Positions 3,634-38,312 of a DNA stretch of 44,656 nt are shown here, piece by piece; position 1 is the stretch's first letter, and the number at the start of each line of letters is the position of its first letter. The notes below the pieces were generated by a model, which had not been told where the DNA came from, did not search any database, and saw only the letters and a list, made by a program, of their open reading frames with translations. Source of the stretch: Escherichia phage vB_EcoM_SHAK7163; sequence record OR594179; one strand, written 5' to 3'. The position numbers and the translations under genes were made by a program.

Positions 3634-6261
3634 ATGCAAGACCTACACGCTATTCAACTTCAACTTGAAGAAGAAATGTTTAACGGCGGTATCCGTCGCT
3701 TTGAAGCGGACCAACAACGCCAGATTGCATCCGGTAATGAATCAGACACGGCATGGAATCGCCGCTTATTGTCCGAACTAATCGCACCTATGGCGGAAGG
3801 TATTCAGGCTTACAAGGAAGAATACGAAGGCAAGAGAGGTCGTGCACCACGTGCATTAGCTTTCATTAACTGCGTAGGAAACGAAGTGGCAGCATATATC
3901 ACCATGAAAATCGTTATGGATATGCTGAACACAGACGTTACCTTACAAGCAATCGCTATGAATGTAGCGGACCGCATCGAAGACCAAGTACGTTTTAGCA
4001 AGCTGGAAGGTCACGCAGCTAAGTACTTTGAGAAAGTGAAGAAGTCACTTAAGGCTAGCAAGACTAAATCTTATCGTCATGCGCACAACGTAGCGGTAGT
4101 AGCTGAGAAATCTGTTGCTGACCGTGACGCGGATTTCTCCCGTTGGGAGGCATGGCCTAAAGACACCTTGCTGCAAATCGGTATGACCTTGCTCGAAATA
4201 TTGGAGAATAGTGTATTCTTCAATGGTCAACCTGTCTTCCTTCGTACCTTGCGCACTAACGGCGGAAAGCATGGTGTTTACTATTTACAGACCAGTGAAC
4301 ATGTTGGAGAGTGGATAACTGCATTTAAGGAACATGTAGCGCAGCTCAGCCCTGCCTATGCACCTTGCGTTATACCTCCCCGCCCTTGGGTATCACCTTT
4401 TAACGGTGGGTTTCATACTGAGAAAGTAGCAAGCCGTATTCGTCTGGTAAAAGGCAATCGTGAGCACGTCCGCAAGCTGACCAAAAAGCAAATGCCAGCC
4501 GTTTATAAGGCTGTTAACGCTTTGCAGGCAACGAAGTGGCAGGTTAATAAAGAGGTTTTACAGGTTGTGGAGGACGTTATACGTCTAGACCTCGGCTATG
4601 GTGTGCCTTCCTTTAAACCACTCATCGACCGTGAGAACAAGCCAGCTAATCCAGTGCCGTTAGAGTTCCAGCACCTGCGAGGCCGTGAACTTAAAGAGAT
4701 GCTAACGCCGGAACAATGGCAAGCCTTCATCAACTGGAAAGGCGAATGTACCAAGCTGTATACCGCTGAAACTAAGCGCGGCAGCAAATCGGCGGCGACC
4801 GTCCGCATGGTTGGGCAGGCACGTAAATACAGCCAGTTTGACGCCATCTACTTCGTGTATGCACTGGACAGCCGCAGCCGCGTCTACGCGCAATCTAGCA
4901 CGCTCTCTCCGCAATCAAACGACTTAGGCAAGGCATTGCTCCGTTTTACCGAAGGGCAGCGCCTTGATAGCGCTGAGGCGCTTAAATGGTTTTTGGTGAA
5001 CGGGGCTAATAACTGGGGTTGGGATAAGAAAACTTTTGACGTGCGCACCGCTAACGTGATGGATAGTGAATTTCAAGACATGTGCCGTGACATTGCAGCG
5101 GATCCGCTAACCTTCACTCAATGGGTAAATGCCGACTCCCCTTACGGCTTCCTTGCATGGTGCTTTGAATATGCGCGTTATCTGGATGCACTGGATGAAG
5201 GCACGCAAGACCAATTCATGACGCACCTCCCAGTCCATCAAGATGGTAGTTGTTCTGGTATACAGCACTACAGTGCTATGCTACGCGATGCAGTAGGTGC
5301 GAAAGCGGTAAACCTTAAGCCCTCTGACTCTCCTCAAGATATTTATGGTGCCGTTGCGCAGGTAGTAATTCAGAAGAATTATGCATACATGAATGCAGAG
5401 GATGCGGAAACCTTCACTTCTGGCAGCGTGACTTTAACAGGTGCGGAACTGCGTAGTATGGCTAGTGCGTGGGATATGATAGGAATCACTCGCGGCCTAA
5501 CCAAAAAGCCCGTAATGACACTACCTTATGGCAGCACACGTCTAACCTGCCGTGAGTCAGTGATTGATTATATCGTTGATTTAGAAGAAAAAGAGGCCCA
5601 ACGGGCTATTGCGGAAGGGCGTACCGCCAATCCTGTACACCCTTTTGATAATGACCGTAAAGACAGCCTTACACCTAGCGCAGCTTATAACTATATGACA
5701 GCTTTAATCTGGCCTTCTATTTCGGAAGTGGTTAAAGCTCCTATAGTGGCAATGAAAATGATTCGTCAGCTTGCCCGTTTCGCAGCTAAAAGGAATGAAG
5801 GCTTAGAGTATACCCTGCCTACTGGCTTCATCTTGCAACAAAAGATTATGGCTACTGATATGCTCCGCGTATCTACTTGCTTGATGGGAGAAATCAAGAT
5901 GAGTCTACAGATTGAAACGGACGTAGTAGATGAAACGGCAATGATGGGCGCTGCTGCTCCTAACTTTGTGCATGGTCATGATGCCAGCCACCTTATCTTA
6001 ACAGTCTGCGACCTTGTTGATAAAGGGATTACATCTATCGCAGTTATTCATGATTCTTTTGGCACTCATGCAGGCCGTACAGCCGACCTTCGTGATAGCT
6101 TAAGGGCAGAAATGGTGAAGATGTATCAAGGCCGTAATGCACTGCAAAGCCTGCTAGATGAGCACGAAGAACGCTGGTTAGTTGATACCGGAATACAAGT
6201 ACCAGAGCAAGGGGAGTTTGACCTTAACGAAATCTTAGTTTCAGACTATTGCTTCGCATAA
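3634..6261 (+). CDS. T7-type single-subunit DNA-dependent RNA polymerase
   Basis: 875 aa; motifs [43 protein letters not shown] and C-terminal ...SDYCFA closely match remembered T7 RNAP ([22 protein letters not shown], ...FAFA). Confidence 0.97.
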
Positions 6262-6269
6262 TATTAATA

Positions 6270-6302
6270 GGCCATTCCTTCGGGAGTGGCCTTTCTTTTA
6301 CC
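6270..6302 (+). terminator. intrinsic terminator after RNAP gene (early terminator)
   Basis: GGCCATTCC-TTCG-GGAGTGGCC hairpin (9-bp stem, UUCG tetraloop) followed by TTTCTTTT. Confidence 0.65.
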
Positions 6303-6333
6303 TACTACCTGTAACATTTCATTAACATAAAGT

Positions 6334-6349
6334 GTCTCACATGTGAGAC
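6334..6349. repeat. 16-bp perfect palindrome GTCTCACATGTGAGAC (copy 1)
   Basis: Exact palindrome 3 bp upstream of promoter at 6352. Confidence 0.9.
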
Positions 6350-6351
6350 TT

Positions 6352-6374
6352 ATTTACCGGACACTATAGGATAG
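6352..6374 (+). promoter_or_regulatory. phage RNAP promoter
   Basis: ATTTACCGGACACTATAGGATAG; matches the window-wide 23-bp consensus; +1 G predicted at 6369. Confidence 0.75.
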
Positions 6375-6516
6375 CCGTCGGAGACGGGAAAGAAAGGGAA
6401 GATAAAAGGATATAAAAGGAAGTAATAGGTATTAAAGGTTATATAGGTTATCTAGGAATACCTATTACCTTCTTCCTTCCTCTTATTACCAATTAGAGGA
6501 AGGGCAGATCTAGGTT

Positions 6517-6532
6517 GTCTCACATGTGAGAC
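6517..6532. repeat. 16-bp perfect palindrome GTCTCACATGTGAGAC (copy 2)
   Basis: Exact palindrome 6 bp upstream of promoter at 6538. Confidence 0.9.
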
Positions 6533-6537
6533 TTCGT

Positions 6538-6560
6538 ATTTACCGGACAGTATAGATAAG
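6538..6560 (+). promoter_or_regulatory. phage RNAP promoter (variant)
   Basis: ATTTACCGGACAGTATAGATAAG; one substitution in the core (CAGTATAG). Confidence 0.55.
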
Positions 6561-6585
6561 ACTAACTTACTTTGGAGATTTAACC

Positions 6586-6714
6586 ATGCGTAACTTTGAG
6601 AAGATGACCCGTAAAGCTAACCGTTTTGACATGGAAGAAGGGCAGAAGAAAGGCAAGAAGCTGAATAAACCTGTCCGTGACCGTGCATCTAAACGCGCTG
6701 CGTGGGAGTTCTAA
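6586..6714 (+). CDS. gp1.1-like small basic protein
   Basis: 42 aa MRNFEKMTRKANRF...KKLNKPVRDRASKRAAWEF resembles remembered T7 gp1.1 (MRNFEKMTKRSNRNARDFE...). Confidence 0.65.
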   Translation: MRNFEKMTRKANRFDMEEGQKKGKKLNKPVRDRASKRAAWEF

Positions 6715-6717
6715 GTT

Positions 6718-8706
6718 ATGGCTATTATTCAGAATGTACCGTGTCCTGCCTGTCAAAAGAATGGACATGATATTACTGGCAACCATCTCATGATATTTGA
6801 TGATGGTGCTGGCTACTGTAATCGTGGACACTTTCATGATAATGGTAGACCTTACTATCACAAGCCGGAAGGTGGCATCGAGATAACCGAGTTACCTATT
6901 ACTGGCAATATCAAATATACACCTTCTCAATTCAAAGAAATGGAGAAGGAAGGGAAGATAAGCGACCCTAAATTACGTGCCATCGCACTTGGTGGTATGC
7001 GTATGAAAGACCGTTGGGAGGTCATGAATGAACAAGAAAGGGCAGAGCAAGAAGCAGAGTGGAAACTTGATGTTGAATGGTTCCTCACGCTTAAGCGTAA
7101 GAACCTTGTTTCCCGACACATTCGCGGCGACATTTGCGCATTGTATGATGTACGTGTCGGACACGATGAAGAGGGTAGAGTCTCGCGGCATTACTATCCA
7201 CGCTTCGAGAAAGGCGAGCTAGTAGGTGCTAAGTGTCGCACATTACCTAAAGACTTTAAGTTTGGTCATTTAGGTAAACTCTTTGGTATGCAAGATCTTT
7301 TCGGGATGAATACTTTGTCTCACGTGTTAGACAAGGGAAGACGAAAGGATTGCTTGCTTATTGTGGGTGGGGAACTGGATGCGCTAGCAGCGCAGCAGAT
7401 GCTCCTTGATTCTGCCAAGGGTACTAAGTGGGAAGGTCAACCTTACCATGTATGGTCTGTTAACAAAGGGGAGTCTTGCCTTGAAGAGATTGTGCAGAAC
7501 CGTGAACACATCGCCCAATTCAAGAAGATTATTTGGGGCTTCGATGGGGATGAGGTAGGGCAGAAGCAGAACCAGCAAGCGGCTCGCCTGTTTCCTGGCA
7601 AATCCTATATCCTTGAGTACCCTTCTGGTTGCAAAGATGCCAACAAGGCATTGATGGCTGGCAAGGCTAAAGAGTTTGTTGATGCATGGTTTAATGCCAA
7701 GTCATCTGATGAAGTCTTTGGTAGCCAGATTAAATCTATCGCATCTCAAAGGGATAAGCTCAAGGCTGCACGTCCAGAGCAAGGACTATCATGGCCTTGG
7801 CCTAAGCTGAACAAGGTAACGCTAGGTATTCGTAAGAACCAGCTTATCATTGTAGGTGCAGGGTCTGGTGTAGGTAAGACTGAGTTCCTTCGTGAAGTAG
7901 TTAAGCACCTCATTGAAGAACACGGTGAATCTGTGGGCATCATTTCTACAGAAGACCCGATGGTCAAGGTGTCCCGTGCTTTTATCGGCAAGTGGATTGA
8001 TAAGCGTATTGAGTTACCTCCAACCAACGACCCGAAAGAAGATGGATACCGCGAGGTGTTCGACTATACCGAGGAAGAAGCTAACGCCGCCATTGATTAT
8101 GTAGCTGATACAGGTAAGCTGTTTGTAGCTGACCTAGAGGGTGACTATTCGATGGAAAAGGTAGAGCAAACTTGCCTAGAGTTTGAGGCTATGGGTATTT
8201 CTAATATCATCATTGATAACTTAACGGGGATTAAATTAGATGAGCGTGCTTTTGGTGGGAAGGTTGGTGCACTTGATGAATGCGTCAAGCGGATTGGTAC
8301 TATCAAAGACCGACACCCGGTTACTATATTCCTTGTATCACACCTTACACGTCCCCCGGCAAACCGTACCCAACACGAAGAAGGTGGCGAAGTTATCCTT
8401 TCTGACTTCCGAGGCTCAGGCGCTATCGGATTCTGGGCATCTTACGCCTTGGGGATTGAGCGTAATACAAGAGCTGAAACGCTTGATGAAAGGACTACCA
8501 CGTACATCTCGTGTGTCAAAGACCGCGATCAAGGTATCTACACTGGAACCAAGGTCATGCTTAAAGGTGACATTCAGACCGGACGTTTGATGGAACCACA
8601 AGCCCGTACTAAGTCATTTGATACAGGTGAAGCAAGGCAGCAAGAGGTGCCTGATTTACCGGACACTATAGAAGAGACAAACTTTGAAGATGAACAGGAG
8701 TTTTAA
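6718..8706 (+). CDS. DNA primase/helicase
   Basis: 662 aa; N-terminal zinc-binding CPACQ...CNRGH, helicase Walker A GAGSGVGKTEF, acidic C-terminus ending EDEQEF. Confidence 0.9.
   Translation: MAIIQNVPCPACQKNGHDITGNHLMIFDDGAGYCNRGHFHDNGRPYYHKPEGGIEITELPITGNIKYTPSQFKEMEKEGKISDPKLRAIALGGMRMKDRWEVMNEQERAEQEAEWKLDVEWFLTLKRKNLVSRHIRGDICALYDVRVGHDEEGRVSRHYYPRFEKGELVGAKCRTLPKDFKFGHLGKLFGMQDLFGMNTLSHVLDKGRRKDCLLIVGGELDALAAQQMLLDSAKGTKWEGQPYHVWSVNKGESCLEEIVQNREHIAQFKKIIWGFDGDEVGQKQNQQAARLFPGKSYILEYPSGCKDANKALMAGKAKEFVDAWFNAKSSDEVFGSQIKSIASQRDKLKAARPEQGLSWPWPKLNKVTLGIRKNQLIIVGAGSGVGKTEFLREVVKHLIEEHGESVGIISTEDPMVKVSRAFIGKWIDKRIELPPTNDPKEDGYREVFDYTEEEANAAIDYVADTGKLFVADLEGDYSMEKVEQTCLEFEAMGISNIIIDNLTGIKLDERAFGGKVGALDECVKRIGTIKDRHPVTIFLVSHLTRPPANRTQHEEGGEVILSDFRGSGAIGFWASYALGIERNTRAETLDERTTTYISCVKDRDQGIYTGTKVMLKGDIQTGRLMEPQARTKSFDTGEARQQEVPDLPDTIEETNFEDEQEF
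8654..8676 (+). promoter_or_regulatory. phage RNAP promoter embedded in 3' end of primase/helicase gene
   Basis: ATTTACCGGACACTATAGAAGAG inside coding sequence (encodes ...LPDTIEE...). Confidence 0.65.
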
Positions 8707-8867
8707 TGGAAATTATTAAACCAGTATTGAATATCGGTATTGAGATCCTATTCATGCTTGTGGTCGCAGATTATGCTGCACGATATGGATTCAAGAAAGC
8801 TGTGAAACTTATCGTTGCATCTGGTTTTATTATGTCAATGTTCTTTATTGTAACACGCCTTATCTAG
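8706..8867 (+). CDS. small membrane protein (53 aa)
   Basis: ATG overlapping helicase stop (TAATG); hydrophobic MEIIKPVLNIGIEILFMLVV...; below ORF-track cutoff. Confidence 0.35.
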   Translation: MEIIKPVLNIGIEILFMLVVADYAARYGFKKAVKLIVASGFIMSMFFIVTRLI

Positions 8868-8884
8868 TGTATTTATCAGGGCTT

Positions 8885-8900
8885 GTCTCACATGTGAGAC
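8885..8900. repeat. 16-bp perfect palindrome GTCTCACATGTGAGAC (copy 3, extended stem)
   Basis: Flanks extend complementarity (CTTGTCTCACATGTGAGACAGG), followed by CTCTTATT. Confidence 0.9.
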
Positions 8901-8939
8901 AGGCTCTTATTAAGTACATTAAATAACTGGAGATTGATT

Positions 8940-9662
8940 ATGTATAAATTAGTGTTGAATGTAGGTGACTTTGTACGAAACATCAAGAAAGATTCAAGTC
9001 GCTATCTTTGCCGTGGTGTTGTAACCTTTGTAGGTGAGAACCTGTATTATGTAGAATATCACAGTGGTGTTAAGCAATATTACCACAAAAAGACAGCACA
9101 TAAATATCTTGAAAAGATTGTAGAGGTAAACAATCAATGTAAGTGCATATATGATGAGGTTTGCGATAAGTGCAAACGTCAGGCAATTAAAGCCTTTACC
9201 TTTGCTCAACGCTATGGTTCTATGTATGGTGCTGGTCACAAGACCGTTGCAGAAGCAGCTTGGAAGACATTGCAGTTTGAGAGTTCAAATGGACGACGCA
9301 CCACACTCAAGAAAGAGCGTCGCAATGTAATCACCGGTAAGACTCAAAGTGAGATGATTAAGCAATGTGGCACTGCATTAGGTGTTACACAGTTTAATAC
9401 TCGTGCATTGGGTAAATCCACAGGACAAGCTATGGTAAAGATTGGAGAAGCCATGATGCATCCAAATGTACCTGTGCGAATCATGGATGTTGACCATGCA
9501 ATCACAGAACAAGGTACGCAACGACGTGTAATTAATAAGCATTTTGCCGACACTATAGAAGGCATTATTCGTAAGCAAGGGTTGAAAGGTCTTCACATCT
9601 TAAATGGTGAAGAATTACTGTACCTACCTATCGTTACTGAAGAAACATACGTGAATATCTAA
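8940..9662 (+). CDS. hypothetical protein (240 aa)
   Basis: First ATG after GGAG SD (track uses TTG at 8934); no recognisable motifs. Confidence 0.55.
   Translation: MYKLVLNVGDFVRNIKKDSSRYLCRGVVTFVGENLYYVEYHSGVKQYYHKKTAHKYLEKIVEVNNQCKCIYDEVCDKCKRQAIKAFTFAQRYGSMYGAGHKTVAEAAWKTLQFESSNGRRTTLKKERRNVITGKTQSEMIKQCGTALGVTQFNTRALGKSTGQAMVKIGEAMMHPNVPVRIMDVDHAITEQGTQRRVINKHFADTIEGIIRKQGLKGLHILNGEELLYLPIVTEETYVNI
9541..9563 (+). promoter_or_regulatory. possible weak phage promoter inside coding sequence
   Basis: ATTTTGCCGACACTATAGAAGGC; core GACACTATAGAAG conserved, upstream part diverged. Confidence 0.3.
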
Positions 9663-9672
9663 GGAGTTAATC

Positions 9673-9891
9673 ATGACTAAGGTATTAATTTATATGCGTG
9701 GACCTCATAAATGCTATGCAGTTGTAGCACCAGATGGTGTTAAGCCCTATGGTACTTCAAAGGGGTTTGCATTAATAGGTGCTAGTAGTAGTGCAAGTTT
9801 TCAGATGGAACTTTTCGGTCATTTGACTGAAAAAGAGTTCCGTGAGGAGTTTAATGTAATCGGCAGCTTTATGGTGAAACATGCAGAATAA
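9673..9891 (+). CDS. hypothetical protein (72 aa)
   Basis: Strong SD AAGGAG 7 nt upstream. Confidence 0.5.
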   Translation: MTKVLIYMRGPHKCYAVVAPDGVKPYGTSKGFALIGASSSASFQMELFGHLTEKEFREEFNVIGSFMVKHAE

Positions 9892-10090
9892 ACATAGTCT
9901 TAAAATGTTCGATGGTCATGAAGACCTGCAAGCCAAGATTACTAACCAAGCCTTCCTGTTCGCACAGTTAACTATGGCTGAAGCAAAGAAGAATAGCCTG
10001 ACGCGTGAACAGGTTATCAAGGAGGCAACTTGGGAGCCACACCAAGGTAAGTATATGGGGCAGAAGGTAACTGTAACACGCAGTCGATAA
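9881..10090 (+). CDS. hypothetical protein (69 aa)
   Basis: ORF overlapping previous stop by 11 nt. Confidence 0.45.
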   Translation: MQNKHSLKMFDGHEDLQAKITNQAFLFAQLTMAEAKKNSLTREQVIKEATWEPHQGKYMGQKVTVTRSR

Positions 10091-10100
10091 GTCAAGGGTT

Positions 10101-10116
10101 GTCTCACACGTGAGAC
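10101..10116. repeat. 16-bp perfect palindrome GTCTCACACGTGAGAC (copy 4, CACGTG centre)
   Basis: Extended by GGTT/AGCC flanks; followed by TTTCATCAT. Confidence 0.9.
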
Positions 10117-10147
10117 AGCCTTTCATCATATTGATTGGAGGTGCATT

Positions 10148-10255
10148 ATGCCACGTGATTATGATTCTGATTGGGATTTCCAAGATTCAATGAATCCAAA
10201 ACCAGAACGTTCAGATGATTACTACGAAACAGAGGCAATGTATGAAGACTATTAA
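10148..10255 (+). CDS. hypothetical small acidic protein (35 aa)
   Basis: Strong SD GGAGGTG then ATG; below track cutoff. Confidence 0.3.
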   Translation: MPRDYDSDWDFQDSMNPKPERSDDYYETEAMYEDY

Positions 10256-10460
10256 ATTAAGCAAGGTTTGCTCTTGCGGTAAAGGTTATCGCAGTCGTAT
10301 TGATGGTAAGTGTGGGCATTGCAGGTCTAAGAAAGAGGCTGCTTTGTTTGATAAGTACCACAATGAATTAGCATATAACTATCCTCATCTAACACCTAAT
10401 TCTTTATTAGGACTTGGTTATAGGGTTAAATACTTTGGAGCAATCTATGAAATCAATTGA
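10242..10460 (+). CDS. hypothetical zinc-ribbon-like protein (72 aa)
   Basis: ATG after AGAGG; CSCG...CGHC cysteine pairs. Confidence 0.45.
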   Translation: MKTIKLSKVCSCGKGYRSRIDGKCGHCRSKKEAALFDKYHNELAYNYPHLTPNSLLGLGYRVKYFGAIYEIN

Positions 10461-12993
10461 TTGGAAGAAGGAGGCAGAAGGTCGTATCCTCGTGATGGAT
10501 GCGGAAGCTAAAGGACTCCTTGACGCTATCCGATATGGACACCGTGAAGATGTGCATATCATTTGCTGCATGGACTTGCTTACTACCGAGGAGTTTCTCT
10601 TCTTTGACCCGTATGAGATGCGTGACCCTGAAGCAAGAGAACGCCTGAAGGAATGGGAAGGTCATCAAGATGGTGACTTGGTTGATGGTGTTAACTTCCT
10701 GAAGCACTGTGAGGCTATTGTGTCGCAGAACTTCCTAGGGTATGACGGTCTTCTCTTTGAGAAAGCATTTCCTGATATATGGAAAGGCTTTAATTACACA
10801 GAGAAGCGTGGCAAGGGCAGGCTCCGTGCCGACCTGTGTCCTGTGCGAGTCATGGACACGCTGGTGATGAGCCGCCTGTTAAACCCTGATAGACGCCTCC
10901 CTCCGCAAGCATATGCCAAAGGCATGGGTAACGTCGCCCCTCACTCAATTGAGGCGCACGGCATCCGTATAGGCCGCTATAAGCCGGAGAATGAGGATTG
11001 GTCTAAACTAACTGATCACATGGTTCACCGTGTACGTGAGGACGTGGCGATTGGTCGTGACCTGTTCCTCTGGCTCTTTAACGGGGAATGGATGGAGCAC
11101 AAACGCCGTGGAGTGAACAAACGTACTGGCCTAGGGATTGAGACAGCCTTCCACATGGAGTCCATTGTGGCGCTGGAGATGAGCCGTCAGGCAGAGCGTG
11201 GATTCCGTCTGGATATCGACAAGGCGTTAGCACGATGCGAGGAATTGGACGCTAAGATTGATGAGACAGTCGCAGCGTTCCGTCCGCACATGCCTATGCG
11301 TATCAAGTCTAAACCTTTTAAACCGGAAGAAAAGAATGAAGTATGCCAACGCGCAAATGAGTATGGAGCTAGCAACAATATACCTACTGTCCTTGACCCC
11401 TCTCACTTTCTTCACGCAGAGAGACGAGGAGATCGCAAGACAGTATGGAGTGTCACTACTAAGTCTGGTGATTGGTCGGCTAGCGTCAAGAAAGACTTTC
11501 CTCACCTTAGAGGAAACCGTAATGACACGCCAAGTATCAAGTGGATTGGCGCTTACTCGCCTGTTACTTTCGAAGAGATTCCCTTGGGTAACAGGGATAC
11601 AGTTAAGCAAGTGCTCTATGATTATGGATGGAAGGGTGTTGAATTTAATGATACCGAGCAAGCGCATCTCGATGAGTATGGAGTGTTACCCAAGCCTTGG
11701 AGTGGGAAGATAAATGAAAAGTCCCTTACTTTATGGCAAGAGAGAGCCGCACGTGAAGGTAAAACAGTCCCTGATTGGTGCTTGGGTATCGCTGCATGGT
11801 ACATACTCGTATCCCGTCGTGGTCAGATCCTCAACCGTGGTGACGTTGAAGCCTTCGACCAGAAGGGGGTGTGGCCTTCGCAAGCTGGTATACGAAAGTG
11901 TCGCGGCCTTGTACCTGTAGCATTTAACAAGGAGTTAGGAATCAATGCGCAGCAATACTACGAAAGGTACGGATGCTGGCCTACGTCAGACAAGGATGAC
12001 GGAGAATGGCGTGTGCCAGCTATTGCTATTAGTATTGGAACTTCTACGTTCCGTATGCGTCATCGTAACGTGGTTAATATTCCTGCCCGTGGTTTGTATC
12101 CTTTACGTGATTTATTCATAGCCGGTAAAGGTAAGCTAATCCTTGGTTGTGATGGTGCTGGTCTTGAACTACGTGTACTGTCTCACTTCATGAATGACCC
12201 TGAATATCAAGATATTGTACTGCATGGTGACATTCACACCCATAATCAAATGAAGGCTGGTCTTCCTAAGCGTGACATGGCGAAGACATTTATATATGCC
12301 TTCCTATATGGGTCTGGTATAGCTAACCTTGCAGCAGTATGTGGTGTTACTGAGGAAGAAATGGAGGAAGTTGTGGCAAGATTTGAGGTTGAACTACCAT
12401 CTCTTGCACGCCTTCGTGAGAATGTTATCGCACAAGGTAACAAGTTTGGCTACCTACAAGCACCTGATGGTCATTGGGGTCGCATCCGTATGTCTGGTGG
12501 TGAACTTAAAGAGCACACTATGCTTAACGTACTACTCCAGATGACTGGTTCTCTGTGTATGAAATACGCATTGGTCAGAGCGTTTGCAGTGATGCGCAAG
12601 GAAGGTGTGGCCTTAGATAGTATGGGAAACCCTTGCGGTATAGCTAACGTGCACGATGAAATCCAGATGGAAGTCCCTGAAGATGAGGTCTTGTATCTCA
12701 ACTACGACTTGCCTTTCACCTTAGAAGGGTTCGAAACAGAGAAGGCTGCTGTGAAAGCAGTGTTCGATGCAGAGGAGAAACGTGTTCATGTGGATTCTGA
12801 AGGACGTATGTGGTCTGCTGCAAATCTCGTTAGCGTTGATGCTGATGCTGGTGTACTTCATTGCCAGCGTCGTTATCACCGTGCAGGGCATATCATTGCC
12901 GATGCAATGACTTGGGCTGGTCATTATTTGAAGATGCGTTGTCCGATGGCAGGTGAGTATAAGATTGGTGCAAGCTGGAAGGAAACACACTGA
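10447..12993 (+). CDS. DNA polymerase, family A, with 3'-5' exonuclease domain
   Basis: 849 aa from ATG with GGAG SD (track ORF begins at TTG 10414); exo motif ILVMDAEAKGL; pol motifs GCDGAGLELRVLSHF, KTFIYAFLYGSG, VHDEIQMEV. Confidence 0.93.
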   Translation: MKSIDWKKEAEGRILVMDAEAKGLLDAIRYGHREDVHIICCMDLLTTEEFLFFDPYEMRDPEARERLKEWEGHQDGDLVDGVNFLKHCEAIVSQNFLGYDGLLFEKAFPDIWKGFNYTEKRGKGRLRADLCPVRVMDTLVMSRLLNPDRRLPPQAYAKGMGNVAPHSIEAHGIRIGRYKPENEDWSKLTDHMVHRVREDVAIGRDLFLWLFNGEWMEHKRRGVNKRTGLGIETAFHMESIVALEMSRQAERGFRLDIDKALARCEELDAKIDETVAAFRPHMPMRIKSKPFKPEEKNEVCQRANEYGASNNIPTVLDPSHFLHAERRGDRKTVWSVTTKSGDWSASVKKDFPHLRGNRNDTPSIKWIGAYSPVTFEEIPLGNRDTVKQVLYDYGWKGVEFNDTEQAHLDEYGVLPKPWSGKINEKSLTLWQERAAREGKTVPDWCLGIAAWYILVSRRGQILNRGDVEAFDQKGVWPSQAGIRKCRGLVPVAFNKELGINAQQYYERYGCWPTSDKDDGEWRVPAIAISIGTSTFRMRHRNVVNIPARGLYPLRDLFIAGKGKLILGCDGAGLELRVLSHFMNDPEYQDIVLHGDIHTHNQMKAGLPKRDMAKTFIYAFLYGSGIANLAAVCGVTEEEMEEVVARFEVELPSLARLRENVIAQGNKFGYLQAPDGHWGRIRMSGGELKEHTMLNVLLQMTGSLCMKYALVRAFAVMRKEGVALDSMGNPCGIANVHDEIQMEVPEDEVLYLNYDLPFTLEGFETEKAAVKAVFDAEEKRVHVDSEGRMWSAANLVSVDADAGVLHCQRRYHRAGHIIADAMTWAGHYLKMRCPMAGEYKIGASWKETH

Positions 12994-13109
12994 TGGACAG
13001 GTTTGATGTTGTTTGCCTATTCTCTATCTTCTTTCTTATATTCCTTATGCTTGCTTGCTATGGAAGTATGCGATTAGATATACCTGATGAAGAGGAGGGT
13101 TACGATTGA
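12993..13109 (+). CDS. small hydrophobic protein (38 aa)
   Basis: ATG overlapping polymerase stop (TGATG); single predicted TM segment. Confidence 0.3.
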   Translation: MDRFDVVCLFSIFFLIFLMLACYGSMRLDIPDEEEGYD

Positions 13110-13207
13110 TGCAAACTGCTTTTATCATTCTTGGGATCATATTATTTATGGTAGTATTCTGGGCTTTCTCTGGCATTGACCCAGATTGTGATGGTAACTA
13201 CGACTGA
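13109..13207 (+). CDS. small hydrophobic protein (32 aa)
   Basis: SD GAGGAGGG upstream; TM-like FIILGIILFMVVFWAF. Confidence 0.3.
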   Translation: MQTAFIILGIILFMVVFWAFSGIDPDCDGNYD

Positions 13208-13275
13208 GTTATACTCAAGGTCACTTACGAGTGGCCTTTATGAATAACTTATTCCTACTTATTTTGTCTAACATG

Positions 13276-13298
13276 ATTTACTGGACACTATAGAAGGA
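13276..13298 (+). promoter_or_regulatory. phage RNAP promoter
   Basis: ATTTACTGGACACTATAGAAGGA. Confidence 0.75.
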
Positions 13299-13362
13299 AA
13301 GCCTAGGTAATCTAGGTTTATAAGGTAGTATAGGTAATTAAGTAAATATAGGAGATATAAAT

Positions 13363-13740
13363 ATGTCTATGGTAACTACTCTGGTATTCGTGGCTCAATA
13401 CTTTCGTGGTCTTGCTAATAAGTTCAAGTCCAAGGCTATCAAAGCTATTGAGGCTCGCATCGAAGCAGTACAGGCAGAGCAAGTTAAAGTTGAAGAACAT
13501 CGTAGTTCTCAAATGATTGACTGTCATAACCGCTACTATGCATCTCGTGATGAACTAAATGCACGTCAAGTCAAAGAGGTAGAAGATATGCTGGCACGTC
13601 ACCAGCAAGAGCGTGACAGCCTGAAAGCTGAATTTGAAGAGAACAAGGCATCAATTGCTCTTGTAAATCAAGCTGCATCTGACAGCCTGAAGAAAGAGAT
13701 TGTTATGCTGGAAATAGAACTGGACAACTTGACTAAATAA
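13363..13740 (+). CDS. hypothetical protein (125 aa), predicted coiled coil
   Basis: SD TAGGAG; heptad-like charged sequence. Confidence 0.55.
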   Translation: MSMVTTLVFVAQYFRGLANKFKSKAIKAIEARIEAVQAEQVKVEEHRSSQMIDCHNRYYASRDELNARQVKEVEDMLARHQQERDSLKAEFEENKASIALVNQAASDSLKKEIVMLEIELDNLTK

Positions 13741-13746
13741 GGGGTT

Positions 13747-14046
13747 ATGATGGAAGAAGTGATTCAAGCTAAACATGTAGGTATCATCTTTCGTGATCTA
13801 GAGCAGCGTAAAGTTGCAGGTCACACTCGTCTGGCTAAAGAAGACGATACAGCAATCACTACTGTGGAACAAGCAGATGCCTATCGTGGTCCAGAGTTTA
13901 CTCAAGGTGAAACTTGTCATCAATTGAGCCTTTCACTTTGTGACACTATGGCTAGTGTAAATGTACAAGAGGTTGAAGATGGTGAATGTGTTAGTTATGT
14001 CTACCCTCTCGATACTATTGCACGTATTAAGGTAGTTCATAAGTAA
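13747..14046 (+). CDS. hypothetical protein (99 aa)
   Basis: ORF with AAGGGG upstream. Confidence 0.5.
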   Translation: MMEEVIQAKHVGIIFRDLEQRKVAGHTRLAKEDDTAITTVEQADAYRGPEFTQGETCHQLSLSLCDTMASVNVQEVEDGECVSYVYPLDTIARIKVVHK

Positions 14047-14067
14047 TTACTGGACACTATAGAACAA
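14045..14067 (+). promoter_or_regulatory. phage RNAP promoter
   Basis: AATTACTGGACACTATAGAACAA. Confidence 0.65.
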
Positions 14068-14123
14068 TAGGTCGGCTTAGTTCGGCCTATGATTGTGTAG
14101 TGTAACAATAGGAGACTAAATAA

Positions 14124-14930
14124 ATGGCACGTGGTGATTTTGATTTTGGTGCTCAGGTTACTAAATCTGAAGGTAAAGTCTTTAAGAATCCAGAAGTAGG
14201 TGATCATGAAGCAGTAATCTCTGGCATCATTCATGTTGGTTCCTTCCAAGACATCTTTAAGAAAGGTAATACCACTGAAGTTAAGAAGCCAGCAAACTTT
14301 GTTCTGGTTAAGATTGTCCTGATGGGTGACGATGACAAGAACGAAGATGATTCTCGCATGGAACAATGGATGGCTGTGCCTCTGAAGTCTGGTGATAAGG
14401 CAACACTGACTAAGTTCCTGAATGCAGTTGACCCTAAAGAGTTGCTGGGTGGCTTTGATGATTTTATCGGTGAATGTCTGACTGCAACTATGGTTGGCTC
14501 TGGCGACAAGAATGATGATGGTACTTTCAAGTATGTTAACTGGAAAGGCTTTGGCGGTATGCCTGATAAGTTGAAGAAGCTTGTACTGGCTCAGGTAGAA
14601 GAGGAAGGTCTGTCTATGACAGGTCATATAACCTTCGACAAGCTGACCAAAGAAATCCTTGATGACATCCCAGCTAACTTGGTACGTCAATACTTCCTGA
14701 ACGAGACACCTCGTGGTAAGAACCTGTCTGTTGCTGGCTCTCACGTAGAAGCTATTATCAAAGCTGCTCGTGAAGAAGACCCTGAATGGAAGAAGGCTAA
14801 GAAGAAAGACGAGGAAGATGCTACCCCAGCTAATCGTAAATCTCTGGATACTGGTGAGTCTGTTCCACAGGAAGTACCTGAAGCAGAAGACACTCCTGCA
14901 CCGGAGATGGATGAGGACGCGGAATATTAA
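14124..14930 (+). CDS. putative ssDNA-binding protein (gp2.5-like by position and acidic C-tail)
   Basis: 268 aa; SD TAGGAG; C-terminal tail EDTPAPEMDEDAEY is acidic with a terminal aromatic residue as in T7 gp2.5; no direct sequence match recalled. Confidence 0.5.
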   Translation: MARGDFDFGAQVTKSEGKVFKNPEVGDHEAVISGIIHVGSFQDIFKKGNTTEVKKPANFVLVKIVLMGDDDKNEDDSRMEQWMAVPLKSGDKATLTKFLNAVDPKELLGGFDDFIGECLTATMVGSGDKNDDGTFKYVNWKGFGGMPDKLKKLVLAQVEEEGLSMTGHITFDKLTKEILDDIPANLVRQYFLNETPRGKNLSVAGSHVEAIIKAAREEDPEWKKAKKKDEEDATPANRKSLDTGESVPQEVPEAEDTPAPEMDEDAEY

Positions 14931-14939
14931 GGAGAACGG

Positions 14940-15158
14940 ATGAAAGTACAAATCGTAACTCTGCATTGCAAGAAAGGAATCACCACACTTGGCGGCAATA
15001 CTTTTCACTCCTTCTCTGAAGGGGAGACATACGCCGACCTTCACTATATCTGGCGTGACGGGCAGCACGTGGTGAACTACAGCGACCCTGCGACTGGTAA
15101 ACGCCACGGCGTGTCGCTTCCGGCGCATGACATTGCTCAGGTGAACACAGTTTTATAA
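14940..15158 (+). CDS. hypothetical protein (72 aa)
   Basis: SD AAGGAG. Confidence 0.5.
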   Translation: MKVQIVTLHCKKGITTLGGNTFHSFSEGETYADLHYIWRDGQHVVNYSDPATGKRHGVSLPAHDIAQVNTVL

Positions 15159-15159
15159 A

Positions 15160-15175
15160 GTCTCACGTGTGAGAC
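15160..15175. repeat. palindrome-family element GTCTCACGTGTGAGAC (copy 5, one mismatch)
   Basis: Single substitution relative to consensus; 15 bp upstream of promoter at 15191. Confidence 0.8.
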
Positions 15176-15190
15176 AAATCGGTGTCCGGT

Positions 15191-15213
15191 ATTTACTGGA
15201 CACTATAGAAGAG
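15191..15213 (+). promoter_or_regulatory. phage RNAP promoter
   Basis: ATTTACTGGACACTATAGAAGAG (exact consensus). Confidence 0.8.
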
Positions 15214-15263
15214 AAGAATTTTAATCGGCGATAATGCCATAACCAACAAAAGGAGAATTTAAT

Positions 15264-15635: not shown

Positions 15636-15693
15636 TAATAGCAGGTGTAGCCTCTGTTAGTCCTAGTTGACTATCACGCTCACCTCATCTAAT

Positions 15694-15727
15694 GCCCTGT
15701 CTGCCTTAGTGTAGGCAGGGTCTTTTG
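15694..15727 (+). terminator. hairpin + U-run terminator
   Basis: GCCCTGTCTGCC-TTAGTG-TAGGCAGGGTC followed by TTTTG. Confidence 0.65.
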
Positions 15728-15752
15728 CGTAATAGTTATTGGAGAATGAATT

Positions 15753-18364: not shown

Positions 18365-18381
18365 TTGACACTATAGAACAA
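18359..18381 (+). promoter_or_regulatory. phage RNAP promoter (SP6-like variant)
   Basis: ATTTAGTTGACACTATAGAACAA. Confidence 0.65.
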
Positions 18382-24726: not shown

Positions 24727-24760
24727 GCCCTATCTACCTTGCGTAGGTAGGGTTATTTTT
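24727..24760 (+). terminator. hairpin + U-run terminator after capsid gene
   Basis: GCCCTATCTACC-TTGCG-TAGGTAGGG followed by TTATTTTTG; same family as the terminator at 15694. Confidence 0.7.
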
Positions 24761-35939: not shown

Positions 35940-36134
35940 ATGATTAACTCCGAACTGGTAGATAGTGGTGTGAAGCTGGCGCCACCTGCATTAGTATCAG
36001 GTGGGTACTTCCTCGGTATCAGTTGGGATAATTGGGTGTTAATAGCAACATTCATTTATACCGTGTTGCAAATTGGAGACTGGTTTTATACCAAGATTAA
36101 ACTATGGAGGAGGAGCCGTGAGCGTACACAATAA
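35940..36134 (+). CDS. holin (T7 gp17.5-like)
   Basis: 64 aa; one TM; NWVLIATFIYTVLQIGDWFYTKIKLW resembles remembered T7 gp17.5 (EWFYVAAIAYTVVQIGAKVVDKMIDW); SD GGAGG. Confidence 0.75.
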   Translation: MINSELVDSGVKLAPPALVSGGYFLGISWDNWVLIATFIYTVLQIGDWFYTKIKLWRRSRERTQ

Positions 36135-36417
36135 ACATGCAGCTACGGAAGACGAGGTTGGCATTCTACATGGTGCTATTACCAAAATCTTTAATAAGAA
36201 AGCACAGGCAATACTGGACACTATAGAAGAAGACCCAGATGCAGCACTGCATTTAGTCTCTGGTAAAGACATTGGGGCTATGTGTAAGTGGGTTCTTGAT
36301 AATGGTATTACCGCTACACCCGCTGCACAGCAGGAGGAGTCCAAGCTATCTAAGCGCCTCAAGGCTATCCGAGAGGCATCAAGTGGCAAGATCATCCAAT
36401 TCACTAAGGAGGATTGA
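36118..36417 (+). CDS. putative terminase small subunit (gp18 position)
   Basis: GTG start 5 nt after GGAGGAGG (track ORF begins at upstream ATG 36073); located immediately before the large terminase gene. Confidence 0.5.
   Translation: MSVHNKHAATEDEVGILHGAITKIFNKKAQAILDTIEEDPDAALHLVSGKDIGAMCKWVLDNGITATPAAQQEESKLSKRLKAIREASSGKIIQFTKED
36209..36231 (+). promoter_or_regulatory. phage promoter-like sequence inside small-terminase coding region
   Basis: CAATACTGGACACTATAGAAGAA; core conserved, -17..-14 diverged; encodes ...ILDTIEE... Confidence 0.45.
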
Positions 36418-38312
36418 TGGCTAAGGCAAGAGAATCACAAGCGGAGGCTCTTGCCAGATGGGAGATGCTACAGGAGTTACAGCAGACTTTTCCGTATACG
36501 GCGGAAGGTTTGCTTCTCTTTGCAGATACAGTTATCCATAACTTGATTGCAGGCAACCCTCATCTGATTCGTATGCAGGCCGATATTTTAAAGTTTCTAT
36601 TCTATGGACATAAATATCGCCTCATCGAAGCGCCCCGTGGTATCGCTAAGACAACACTATCAGCAATCTATACGGTATTCCGTATTATTCATGAACCGCA
36701 TAAGCGTATCATGGTTGTGTCCCAAAACGCCAAGCGAGCAGAGGAAATCGCAGGCTGGGTAGTTAAAATCTTCCGTGGCTTAGACTTTCTTGAGTTTATG
36801 CTGCCGGATATCTACGCTGGGGACCGTGCATCCGTTAAGGCGTTTGAGATTCATTACACCCTACGTGGTAGTGATAAGTCTCCTTCTGTATCCTGTTACT
36901 CAATCGAAGCAGGTATGCAGGGTGCTCGTGCTGATATTATTCTAGCAGATGACGTAGAATCGATGCAGAATGCTCGTACAGCGGCAGGACGTGCCTTGCT
37001 TGAGGAACTGACCAAGGAGTTTGAATCTATTAACCAGTTTGGTGATATTATCTACCTTGGTACTCCTCAGAACGTAAACTCTATCTACAATAACCTACCT
37101 GCACGTGGTTACTCTGTTCGTATCTGGACTGCACGTTATCCCTCAGTGGAGCAGGAGCAATGCTATGGTGACTTCCTTGCACCTATGATTGTGCAGGATA
37201 TGAAGGACAACCCAGCACTTCGCTCAGGGTATGGCTTGGATGGCAATAGTGGTGCCCCTTGTGCACCTGAAATGTATGATGATGATGTGCTGATTGAGAA
37301 GGAAATCTCGCAGGGTGCGGCTAAGTTCCAGCTTCAGTTTATGCTTAACACTCGCATGATGGATGCTGACCGCTATCCGCTACGCCTGAACAACCTCATC
37401 TTCACTTCATTCGGTACAGAGGAAGTCCCTGTGATGCCTACATGGAGCAACGACTCTATTAACATCATTGGCGATGCACCGAAGTATGGCAATAAGCCTA
37501 CAGACTTTATGTATCGCCCTGTGGCCCGACCTTATGAGTGGGGCGCTGTTACCCGTAAGATTATGTATATTGACCCAGCGGGTGGCGGTAAGAACGGGGA
37601 CGAAACAGGCGTATCGATTGTCTTCCTGCACGGCACATTCATTTACGTGTACCAGTGCTTCGGTGTGCCAGGTGGATACCGAGAATCGTCCCTGAATCGC
37701 ATTGTGCAGGCCGCAAAGCAGGCAGGTGTTAAAGAGGTATTCATTGAGAAGAACTTTGGTCATGGCGCGTTTGAGGCCGTTATAAAGCCATACTTTGAAC
37801 GAGAGTGGCCTGTGACTCTGGAGGAAGATTACGCCACCGGACAGAAAGAGTTGCGTATCATTGAAACACTAGAGCCACTAATGGCGGCCCACAGGCTCAT
37901 CTTCAACGCAGAGATGGTCAAGTCTGATTTTGAGTCGGTACAGCACTATCCGCTTGAACTACGCATGTCATACAGCCTTTTCAATCAAATGTCGAACATC
38001 ACGATTGAGAAGAACAGCCTACGACACGATGACCGCTTAGACGCTCTGTATGGCGCTATACGGCAATTAACTTCTCAAATAGACTATGACGAGGTTACAC
38101 GGATTAATCGCCTCAGAGCGCAGGAGATGCGCGATTACATCCATGCTATGAACACACCTCACCTCCGTAGGGCAATGCTCTATGGAGATTATGGCACTGA
38201 GCGAAGAGTAACCAACACTTCCGTGGCTATGCAGCAAAGAGTATACGGTCAGAATTACAGGAGTAAATCGGCAAGCAGAAATACACTTTCTGCAAGGATT
38301 TCAAGGATTTAG
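36417..38312 (+). CDS. terminase large subunit (gp19-like)
   Basis: 631 aa from ATG overlapping upstream stop; Walker A-like EAPRGIAKTT; position. Confidence 0.9.
   Translation: MAKARESQAEALARWEMLQELQQTFPYTAEGLLLFADTVIHNLIAGNPHLIRMQADILKFLFYGHKYRLIEAPRGIAKTTLSAIYTVFRIIHEPHKRIMVVSQNAKRAEEIAGWVVKIFRGLDFLEFMLPDIYAGDRASVKAFEIHYTLRGSDKSPSVSCYSIEAGMQGARADIILADDVESMQNARTAAGRALLEELTKEFESINQFGDIIYLGTPQNVNSIYNNLPARGYSVRIWTARYPSVEQEQCYGDFLAPMIVQDMKDNPALRSGYGLDGNSGAPCAPEMYDDDVLIEKEISQGAAKFQLQFMLNTRMMDADRYPLRLNNLIFTSFGTEEVPVMPTWSNDSINIIGDAPKYGNKPTDFMYRPVARPYEWGAVTRKIMYIDPAGGGKNGDETGVSIVFLHGTFIYVYQCFGVPGGYRESSLNRIVQAAKQAGVKEVFIEKNFGHGAFEAVIKPYFEREWPVTLEEDYATGQKELRIIETLEPLMAAHRLIFNAEMVKSDFESVQHYPLELRMSYSLFNQMSNITIEKNSLRHDDRLDALYGAIRQLTSQIDYDEVTRINRLRAQEMRDYIHAMNTPHLRRAMLYGDYGTERRVTNTSVAMQQRVYGQNYRSKSASRNTLSARISRI

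Follow-up and report, generated by a model that had tools for sequence, protein, structure and literature searches.

Three copies of the promoter used by the phage's own RNA polymerase lie inside protein-coding genes of the window, by which we mean the whole 44,656-nucleotide stretch of DNA from Escherichia phage vB_EcoM_SHAK7163 (OR594179) analysed here. Each copy runs in the same direction as its host gene, and the reading frame that the three have in common is probably a by-product. As a whole, we consider this the best explanation of the data, with a probability of roughly 0.78. The motif GACACTATAGAA is found inside ORFs at 8662 (primase-helicase), 9549 (gp10) and 36217 (small terminase, terS). 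A preliminary description had proposed in-gene promoters at these places; their coordinates and their match to the promoter consensus of the window itself, ATTTACTGGACACTATAGAAG, were both confirmed.

The phage promoter and its in-gene copies

By its sequence, the window belongs to a K1E/K1-5-like Vectrevirus of the SP6 supergroup. The phage's own T7/SP6-type RNA polymerase would transcribe the middle and late genes, and a cognate single-subunit enzyme, homologous to K1E gp7, is indeed encoded in the same genome (3634..6261, plus strand; Pfam RNA_pol, 3.9e-90, and RPOL_N), in a region whose DNA is ~96% identical to the K1E equivalent. Using as reference sites the intergenic promoter at 13276..13296 (plus strand), which matches the consensus perfectly, and those starting at 6352, 14045, 15191, 18359, 23438, 38314 and 40668, we trained a position-weight matrix (PWM) on a promoter span of ~21 bp (-17 to +4) that includes the CACTATAG core and the +1 G. 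With at most one mismatch, GACACTATAGAA occurs 11 times in the window, against 0.27 expected, and every occurrence is on the plus strand. PWM matches of at least 19 bits are likewise exclusive to the plus strand, the top minus-strand match reaching 15.1 bits.

All three sites are contained entirely within ORFs that stay open, and the host genes have family matches and homologues in at least 11 genomes. The sites are parallel to the genes around them, with a Shine-Dalgarno sequence and an ATG downstream at 8706, 9673 and 36417. From the sequence we infer initiation at the G residues at 8671, 9558 and 36226, where positions +1 to +3 are occupied by GAA, from which SP6 polymerase initiates best (PMC7429497). 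No Rfam family matched the window, and scans for sigma-70 promoters around the three sites gave no excess over shuffled sequence. Promoter features are absent from the deposited K1E, K1-5, SP6 and KAW1A4500 records. The literature searched contained no 5'-end map or in vitro data for any SP6-group phage, and the phage genome papers in it that mention promoters do not give their positions.

A probable promoter in the primase-helicase tail

The primase-helicase gene (6718..8706, plus strand; 662 aa; Pfam DnaB_C and Toprim_2; PHROG 239) encodes a DnaB_C domain that extends to residue 604 and, after it, an acidic tail with E-F as the final residues. The last 18 codons contain the site ATTTACCGGACACTATAGAAG (8654..8674, plus strand; +1 at G8671), which is read as D-L-P-D-T-I-E-E. 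Differing from the window's own consensus at one position, it scores 32.4 bits, compared with 28.4-34.3 bits for the intergenic promoters.

An orthologous promoter of the phage's own type, 23-35 nt before the helicase stop, was present in 11 of 11 genomes and in 22 of 24 IMG/VR loci, spanning seven specificity classes. Helicase-tail sites score best with the matrix built from the intergenic promoters of their own phage (27.6-34.5 bits on the diagonal, 3.7-25.9 bits off it), and the 8654 site thus covaries with polymerase specificity across the seven classes. Because each site is written in the promoter dialect of its own phage, the tail peptide varies between phages (LPDTIE, LGDTIE, LETTIE, LGRTIE, VAGIE, GATIE or MCCTIE, according to promoter class), with I-E invariant, while the rest of the helicase remains 80-93% identical across phages with differing tail peptides. 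In BP12B, from which the promoter is absent, the tail reads VVPEEGEVTGADETQEF, without xTIE yet still ending in E-F; in the helicase, therefore, the DNA signal takes precedence over the peptide. Variants that break the core of the helicase-tail site also exist, with T at -7 in K1-5 and A at -10 in the loci L034 and L035.

That site 8654 is a genuine promoter is very probable, and the comparison between phages supports a constraint imposed by it on the protein of the helicase tail: with the promoter as the selected element, the residues encoded from -12 to -4 would be set by the current promoter specificity. We picture 8654 as an ancient promoter of full strength, carried by the codons for the acidic C-terminal tail. 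Transcripts, predicted to start at G8671, would serve gene 9.5, gp10 and the genes up to DNA polymerase. The first gene downstream is gene 9.5 (8706..8867, plus strand; 53 aa; PHROG 15806), annotated at the equivalent place in K1E as gp9.5, and its Shine-Dalgarno sequence, CAGGAG, sits in the last helicase codons.

Weaker sites in terS and gp10

The site in terS, CAATACTGGACACTATAGAAG (36209..36229, plus strand; +1 at G36226), is read as I-L-D-T-I-E-E and lies 191 nt before the stop of its host gene (36118..36417, plus strand; T7 gp18 family; Pfam DNA_Packaging_2; PHROG 891; K1E gp39), 5' of the terL start. It scores 24.1 bits, with 18 consecutive consensus matches (-14 to +4) and three mismatches at -17 to -15. 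The site was found exclusively in Vectrevirus, in 15 distinct sequences, three of them with a single change; it is altered in L016, L018 and L022. Relatives carry ILDAIE(E/D), ILREIEE and similar peptides in other codons, I-E being invariant among the homologues. Compared with these relatives, Vectrevirus terS has replaced one Ala by Thr and differs in six synonymous codon choices, all of which bring it closer to the promoter. The peptide is thus only partly subordinate to the DNA signal, D-x-I-E being ancestral and the Thr and codon choices promoter-specific. Judged from these sequences, the constraint is partly reversed at 36209, since the ancestral I-L-D-A-I-E-E is one residue away from a promoter-compatible peptide. 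The constraint between promoter and protein, in one direction or the other, that was suggested earlier is therefore seen at 8654, where residues from -12 to -4 follow polymerase specificity and BP12B lacks both the promoter and the peptide, and in partly opposite direction at 36209. The same description had rated both 8654 and 36209 as good enough to be functional, an assessment that agrees with the 32.4 bits of 8654 and needs tempering for 36209, which is weaker at 24.1 bits and whose activity is presumptive.

A strong terminator-like hairpin with a T-run (24727..24753, plus strand) lies just after the capsid gene, and between it and 38314 the only phage-promoter-like site is 36209. The late block that this site would serve comprises 13.5 kb without intergenic room for a promoter. 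We suggest that 36209 is a weaker, lineage-restricted promoter that would supply terL mRNA 3' of the capsid-gene terminator. The large terminase gene (36417..38312, plus strand) is the likely beneficiary of transcripts from 36226, as it has its own AAGGAGG upstream of its ATG at 36417. Other phages, too, have in-gene sites of independent origin in their promoter-free late block, namely in gp36 of SP6 and KpM186, gp40 of Kp7 and gp38 of PP1.

The site in gp10, ATTTTGCCGACACTATAGAAG (9541..9561, plus strand; +1 at G9558), is read as F-A-D-T-I-E-G, 104 nt before the stop of its host gene (8940..9662, plus strand; PHROG 6703; counterpart of K1E gp10). It scores 22.2 bits, with four mismatches in the specificity region (-13 to -10) and the core from -9 to +4 kept. 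The site is retained in 12 of 12 Vectrevirus gp10 genes examined and is absent from L039, SE29, PM85, PP1, Kp7 and phD2B. Homologues of gp10 without the site carry AIVN, ALVE, QMVT, ALVR or DMIK at this place, all with hydrophobic pairs, and here too the DNA signal comes before the peptide. In SP6 and KpM186 an in-gene site lies 4 codons (12 nt) away from the equivalent of 9541, which indicates an independent origin; orthology of the gp10 site between Vectrevirus and SP6 was rejected on the basis of this offset in the alignment. The second gp10/gp11 site, at the SP6 position, is a perfect consensus in BP12B, the phage without a tail promoter. We propose that 9541 acts as a weaker, lineage-restricted promoter, which would give extra transcription of genes 10.5 to 13.

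Weighing the alternatives

Within-genus data were less informative. In sliding windows of third-position diversity, the site windows ranked 138 of 657 in the helicase, 13 of 223 in gp10 (counted from the lowest) and 15 of 94 in terS, corresponding to the 21st, 6th and 16th percentiles, and a per-codon Fisher test of within-genus synonymous conservation in terS gave p = 0.41. As a sign of selection, such conservation is suggestive only, and the case rests instead on the cross-genus covariation.

There is a real, if minority, chance that 8654 alone works and that 9541 and 36209 are silent or negligible, either as decayed relics or as sequences held in place by their peptide and by the ancestry of a young genus. 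Both sites fall short of the weakest intergenic promoter in the training set by 4-6 bits, both are confined at these positions to Vectrevirus, and their within-genus conservation is not significant. In addition, in-gene sites can persist without a matching resident polymerase: at locus L068 the gp11 site is still of SP6 type while the promoters of that phage read GTGTTGCAC, and the LGDTIG site of gp35/36 does not track polymerase specificity. Some in-gene look-alikes are thus relics or are held by their peptide. On the other hand, even with the peptide taken as given, the 18-position match of 36209 (-14 to +4) would have a probability of ~6e-4. Several lineages have late-block in-gene sites that arose independently, a site was acquired on two occasions in the gp10 region, at places 12 nt apart, and the natural T7 promoters phi1.1A and phi4c likewise begin with CAAT. 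Sites 9541 and 36209 are too good for chance, and we infer from their sequences that they function as promoters.

It is improbable that the in-gene copies are chiefly short identical recombination sites marking module boundaries, as opposed to transcription signals. There are traces of exchange at such places. Upstream of the gp11 promoter of BP12B, the sequence has been swapped for an unrelated gene, the TAG stop of which falls within the promoter, while the sequence 3' of it stays homologous; gp10 and gp35 are mosaic among Vectrevirus; and in SE29 the helicase-tail promoter is present twice, the additional copy being exact and including the flanks. However, recombination leaves unexplained why helicase-tail sites track polymerase specificity across seven classes, why all sites are parallel to the genes and why they carry the optimal GAA at +1 to +3. 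Moreover, promoters at which recombination takes place can still act as promoters, and the exchange would be secondary to that role.

A shared reading frame without special meaning

The GAC codons at 8662, 9549 and 36217 are in frame with ORFs 6718-8706, 8934/8940-9662 and 36073/36118-36417, and the translations across the sites are LPDTIEET (8654), FADTIEGI (9541) and ILDTIEED (36209). Given the codon usage of the phage and ~13,400 codons, the in-frame 12-mer was observed 3 times against 0.0025 expected, and the DTIE peptide 3 times against 0.19 expected. All DTIE copies share identical codons, including the rare ATA, while the two other D-T-I tripeptides of the proteome are encoded by GAT ACT ATT and GAT ACT ATC.

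The preliminary description had drawn attention to the common frame. DTIE is indeed read at each site, but the frames available for this promoter account for it. One alternative, ACA CTA TAG, is closed by a stop, and the other, xGA CAC TAT AGA, requires His, Tyr and a rare Arg codon and is 15-fold (10-mer) to 39-fold (12-mer) less likely than GAC ACT ATA GAA. As a result, the probability that all three sites fall in the D-T-I-E frame is ~0.8-0.9; their sharing of it is not above chance and needs no special explanation. The same pattern holds for ~8 independent in-gene sites in relatives, which use a D-T-I-E-type frame in all cases but PP1 34033, where the TAG frame is used and TATAG is altered to TAAAG, as in T7 phi4c. 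We view the common frame as a by-product: GAC-ACT-ATA-GAA (Asp-Thr-Ile-Glu) is common, hydrophilic and suited to an acidic tail, and the frame would be reachable from pre-existing L-x-D-A/T-I-E peptides. An origin of the three sites by paralogous duplication was rejected, as their flanks share only the promoter.

It is very hard to sustain the converse view that D-T-I-E is a functional peptide motif of three unrelated proteins and the promoter likeness secondary. The invariance of I-E in the helicase tail and in terS homologues would fit such a motif, but the helicase residues upstream of I-E change exactly with the promoter of each phage, and every DTIE uses the same codons, rare ATA included, while other DTI tripeptides differ. 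The question, raised earlier, of whether DTIE is kept in homologues lacking the promoter was answered in the negative for the helicase, where BP12B has no such peptide, and for gp10, where site-less homologues have hydrophobic pairs instead; in terS, D-x-I-E is ancestral. Chance, for which only the small number of sites speaks, is refuted as an explanation of the three in-gene matches by the counts of 3 against 0.0025 (in-frame 12-mers) and 11 against 0.27 (at most one mismatch, one strand), leaving it a negligible probability.

Implications for genome annotation and evolution

A wider reading, for which we see the odds as even, joins these results into a general rule of co-evolution, in which the helicase tail of Molineuxvirinae has long served as a dual-coding segment and in-gene promoters are born recurrently. 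If this is true, shifts in polymerase specificity force replacements in the tail, even Cys-Cys in the acidic tail of L068; new promoters arise repeatedly in the permissive frame at pre-adapted L-x-D-A/T-I-E peptides; and promoter birth favours the late block, which lies beyond the capsid terminator and is otherwise devoid of promoters. By analogy with T7 gp4, whose tail is acidic and Phe-terminated, the helicase tail probably contacts DNA polymerase. No description of such a promoter/protein co-evolution rule was found in the literature searched.

The practical value is modest and concerns annotation, engineering and evolution. As the GenBank records inspected do not contain these promoters, there are gaps in the transcription maps of K1E- and SP6-like therapeutic phages. 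The promoters would be silently destroyed if the helicase, gp10 or terS genes were recoded synonymously, codon-deoptimised or refactored, and directing the polymerase to another promoter would call for altered helicase-tail residues. The helicase-tail site also offers a clean natural case in which a DNA signal dictates the protein sequence in each of seven promoter dialects.

Comparison with T7 and SP6

In-gene promoters are a known kind of arrangement, ordinary in compact T7/SP6-type genomes, and involve no new mechanism. The closest precedent is T7 phi4c (NC_001604), a phage-RNAP promoter wholly inside the primase-helicase gene 4, parallel to the gene and with the ORF left open. It lies 594 nt before the stop, whereas 8654 is in the C-terminal tail. 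Furthermore, phi4c is read in a frame with TAA and TAG in the consensus, which it escapes by deviating (CAAT..., CTAAAG), whereas the sites of the window use the D-T-I-E frame with TATAG intact; the T7-like solution was found in PP1 34033 only.

Overlap of a promoter with the 3' end of the upstream gene is seen at T7 phi1.3, 1.5, 1.6, 2.5, 4.3, 9 and 17, in a genome that is compact like the window's, and phi4.3, the first promoter after the helicase gene, is the positional analogue of 8654. The T7 overlaps share a stop codon only (the TAA of TAATACGACTCACTATAG), whereas at 8654 the whole 21 bp and 35 further nt are coding. The promoter of the window at 18359 has a T7-like arrangement, gene 22 ending in a TAG that occupies promoter positions -14 to -12. 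T7 phi13 and phi17 provide extra initiation 3' of the leaky post-capsid terminator Tphi, the role proposed for 36209; they are intergenic and match the consensus, whereas the putative promoter 36209 lies inside terS and deviates at -17 to -15.

For the SP6 promoter consensus, ATTTAGGTGACACTATAGAAG, 12 occurrences have been reported in the genome of SP6 (PMC11880802). Promoters of SP6 and K1E have the core CACTATAGAAG and the 21-bp architecture in common with those of the window, and differ in the preference at -12 to -9, which is CTGG or CCGG for the polymerase of the window and GGTG for that of SP6. SP6 itself carries the orthologous helicase-tail site (8411) and an in-gene site in gp11 (9112).

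Promoter copies within genes share one reading frame

Across 6000-16000 (10 kb), the window is 94-97% identical to Escherichia phages K1E, K1-5, vB_EcoP_C and other members of Vectrevirus, in the SP6 supergroup of Molineuxvirinae (Autographiviridae). It encodes a single-subunit RNA polymerase (ORF 3634-6261; Pfam RNA_pol and RPOL_N matches), and the promoter core GACACTATAGAA occurs nine times exactly and 11 times with at most one mismatch, on the + strand only, against 0.27 expected. Alignment of the sites gave the consensus ATTTACTGGACACTATAGAAG, a K1E-type variant of the SP6 promoter ATTTAGGTGACACTATAGAAG. A scoring matrix was trained on eight intergenic promoters of the window, which score 28.4-34.3 bits.

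As the preliminary description had placed them, three promoter-like sites lie inside genes: 8654-8674 (ATTTACCGGACACTATAGAAG) in the primase-helicase gene (6718-8706; DnaB_C and Toprim), 9541-9561 (ATTTTGCCGACACTATAGAAG) in gp10 (8940-9662; PHROG 6703, function unknown) and 36209-36229 (CAATACTGGACACTATAGAAG) in the small terminase gene, terS (36118-36417; DNA_Packaging_2). All three host ORFs have GAC ACT ATA GAA as in-frame codons, within the peptides LPDTIEET, FADTIEGI and ILDTIEED, respectively. Using a codon-usage model built from the window's genes, 0.0025 in-frame copies of this 12-mer are predicted against three observed, while the DTIE peptide has an expectation of 0.19 in the proteome; the remaining two D-T-I tripeptides are encoded by GAT ACT ATT and GAT ACT ATC. 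These counts rule out a chance origin, and the observation of promoter copies within genes in a single frame is confirmed. All three sites also carry GAA at +1 to +3, which is optimal for SP6 polymerase, the sole relevant experimental fact that we found in the literature (PMC7429497). A promoter role has good support at 8654 and is plausible but unproven at 36209 and 9541, while the importance given to the common frame of the three is explained away.

Read as ACA CTA TAG, the promoter is closed by a stop; read as xGA CAC TAT AGA, it requires His, Tyr and the rare Arg codon AGA. With the phage's own codon frequencies, the Asp-Thr-Ile-Glu frame is 15 (10-mer) to 39 (12-mer) times likelier than the His-Tyr-Arg frame, and three of three sites in the D-T-I-E frame are therefore expected, with a probability of about 0.8-0.9. 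Among ten relatives scanned for in-gene sites (K1E, K1-5, 101118B1, SP6, SE29, KpM186, PM85, PP1, Kp7 and phD2B), the frame was the same throughout, with the sole exception of PP1 34033 (GAAAAGGGCGGACTAAAGAAG, in gp38), which lies in the TAG frame with TATAG changed to TAAAG; T7 phi4c (CAATCCGACTCACTAAAGAGAGA) shows the same stop-codon escape. Thus, the common frame follows from the genetic code and from composition and is neither a design feature nor a meaningful coincidence.

The helicase-tail promoter is written in each phage's own dialect

Site 8654 scores 32.4 bits, inside the span of the intergenic promoters. It lies downstream of the DnaB_C domain end (residue 604), in an acidic tail with a terminal E-F. 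The tail of T7 gp4, which that of the window resembles, is likewise acidic and Phe-terminated, and binds DNA polymerase.

An equivalent promoter was found 23-35 nt upstream of the helicase stop in 11 of 11 genomes and in 22 of the 24 IMG/VR loci retrieved by helicase alignment. Each is written in the promoter specificity, or dialect, of its host phage: CCGGACAC in Vectrevirus (tail LPDTIE), GGTGACAC or GGGGACAC in SP6-like phages (LGDTIE), AGAGACCAC in PM85 (LETTIE), GGGCGGAC in PP1 (LGRTIE), GTGGCGGGT in Kp7 (VAGIE), GGGGCTAC in phD2B (GATIE) and GTGTTGCAC in locus L068 (MCCTIE). On cross-scoring, the intergenic model of the phage itself was the best for every helicase-tail site (27.6-34.5 versus 3.7-25.9 bits). 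Elsewhere the helicase is 80-93% identical among these genera, and the only invariant tail residues are P251, I257, E258 and E267. The preliminary description had left open whether promoter or protein constrains the other, and had proposed examining homologues lacking the promoter. BP12B, the sole evaluable homologue of this kind, retains E-F and lacks xTIE (tail VVPEEGEVTGADETQEF), so the helicase peptide follows the promoter, not vice versa. The terminal codons CAG GAG TTT TAA double as the Shine-Dalgarno sequence of gene 9.5 (ATG at 8706). Site 8654 is very probably (about 0.9) a real, ancient promoter, from which transcription would start at 8671.

The L068 phage, an uncultivated relative (IMGVR_UViG_3300045988_000861), carries its dialect ATTTGTGTTGCACTATAGAAG at 8468, 8637, 10758, 15038, 15500 and 17124, and its acidic helicase tail consequently contains two cysteines (MCCTIED). 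SE29 (L042) has two copies of the helicase-tail promoter with the same flanks, spaced by exactly 1000 nt (9093 and 10093); ORF 9390-10145 contains the second at its end. Either the helicase 3' end has been partly duplicated or the assembly is at fault here.

Sites in the small terminase and gp10 genes

Site 36209 matches the consensus exactly from -14 to +4 (24.1 bits), with CAA (CTA in some relatives) at -17 to -15, where the consensus is ATT. It is limited to Vectrevirus. Other genera encode ILDAIE(E/D), ILREIEE, LLKEIEA, ILNEIEQ or ILEVIEE at this position with different codons, and the peptide context is therefore ancestral; in Vectrevirus, a single Ala-to-Thr replacement and six synonymous codon choices, two rare ATA codons among them, go without exception towards the promoter. 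The site is kept in 15 distinct Vectrevirus sequences, three of them with single changes, although this conservation within the genus does not reach significance (rank 15 of 94). A strong terminator-like hairpin lies 3' of the capsid gene (24727-24753), and the window scan detected no promoter-like site besides 36209 from there to 38314. The large terminase gene, terL, starts with an ATG at 36417 that is preceded by an AAGGAGG of its own, and a promoter placed after the capsid hairpin and before terL would make functional sense. In-gene sites also occur in the late promoter-free block of SP6, SE29 and KpM186 (gp36), Kp7 (gp40) and PP1 (gp38), acquired independently in these several lineages; the T7 counterpart is the intergenic promoters phi13 and phi17. 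We consider activity of site 36209 moderately probable. The window's terL (36417-38312) is intact, whereas that of K1E is split into 40A/40B by a homing-endonuclease gene, and similar splits are found in SE29 and phD2B.

Site 9541 is perfect from -9 to +4, with TGCC in place of ACTG at -13 to -10 (22.2 bits). It was present in each of the 12 Vectrevirus gp10 genes examined, and its third-position variability is among the lowest in the gene (rank 13 of 223). In gp10 homologues that lack the site, hydrophobic pairs stand there instead (AIVN, ALVE, QMVT, ALVR and DMIK), so DTIE is no conserved protein motif. In SP6 and KpM186, the same gene has a site four codons further on (VLR-DTIG), an offset that indicates independent gain. 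In BP12B this second site conforms perfectly to the consensus (ATTTAGGTGACACTATAG) and is flanked by a foreign gene that ends on a TAG inside the promoter and by a kept 3' remnant of gp11; this pattern, in a phage lacking the helicase-tail promoter, argues for function. Against this, L068 retains an SP6-type sequence at the gp11 site that does not match its own promoters. The chance that site 9541 is active, in which case it would probably be a weak promoter, appears slightly less than even.

In BP12B (L069/L060), the foreign gene (160 aa) replaces the segment from helicase tail to gp11 promoter (record positions 8734-9300), overlapping the helicase 3' end and leaving ~70 nt of gp11 C-terminal sequence downstream as an apparently non-coding leader, which suggests that promoters can act as module boundaries. 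Separately, the match to the 69-residue PHROG 29871 is confined to the C-terminal third of gp10 (residues 172-240; 9453-9659), whose extreme C-terminus, PIVTEETYV, is common to all genera, while the rest of gp10 falls to 37-50% identity.

In-gene look-alikes do not all track the resident polymerase, and sequence alone therefore cannot prove the activity of sites 9541 and 36209. An SP6-type sequence, TTAGGTGACACTATAGG (LGDTIG), sits in the lysozyme-domain internal virion protein gene (gp35/36) of SP6 (L004, 29393), SE29 (31696), KpM186 (L008, reverse-complemented, 28092), 101118B1 (L043, 27264) and PM85 (L006, near 30245), despite the different promoters of the last two, those of 101118B1 being K1E-type. 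In the window, K1E and K1-5, this segment is of an unrelated type (30% amino-acid identity), which makes the gene mosaic.

Comparison with T7 and SP6

For T7, promoters overlapping or within coding sequence are textbook knowledge: phi4c is internal to gene 4, and seven promoters share TAA with the stop of the upstream gene. The window has a T7-like stop-sharing case at 18359-18379, before gene 23, where TAG at -14 to -12 is the stop of gene 22 (17222-18364). The in-gene promoters are therefore an arrangement of a known kind, in a phage closely related to published ones. For the SP6 genome, 12 promoter occurrences have been stated (PMC11880802), whereas our scan found only about nine strong intergenic copies, suggesting to us that the published count includes in-gene copies. 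We did not find described in the literature the seven-fold covariation of helicase-tail peptide with promoter dialect or the recurrent birth of internal promoters in a single permissive frame; they offer a tidy evolutionary illustration and no new mechanism.

The 18359 promoter has G at -12 (consensus C), and a stop within the promoter before gene 23 (TAA or TAG) is maintained in nine of nine genomes scanned. At the 14045 promoter, the TAA stop of gene 15.5 (14044-14046) overlaps -18 to -16.

Other elements in the window

A comparison of the two window ends gave no exact terminal repeat. Near the right end, two C12 tracts (43967-43978 and 44277-44288), 310 nt apart, are flanked identically on either side (ctcgccctcgccctcgccgggttg ... 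atagggtggcctgagggaatccgtcttcga).

The perfect palindrome GTCTCACATGTGAGAC occurs eight times (0.26 expected), with 16-nt cores at 250, 6334, 6517, 7317, 8885, 10101, 15160 and 31601. The copies are mainly intergenic and often immediately 5' of phage promoters (6334/6352, 6517/6538 and 15160/15191); the one at 8868-8918 has a predicted hairpin of -25.8 kcal/mol (z = -5.6). The analogous palindrome of relatives, TGTCCAACATGTTGGACA, has nine copies in SP6. The palindrome has no match in Rfam. It may serve in RNase III-type processing or as a stabilising hairpin. Two of its copies precede the tandem promoter-like sites 3' of the polymerase gene (6352-6372 and 6538-6558), the second of which is degenerate (GACAGTATAGATA), in the same form as in K1E, K1-5 and PM85. 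In position, this pair resembles phi1.1A/phi1.1B at the T7 primary replication origin.
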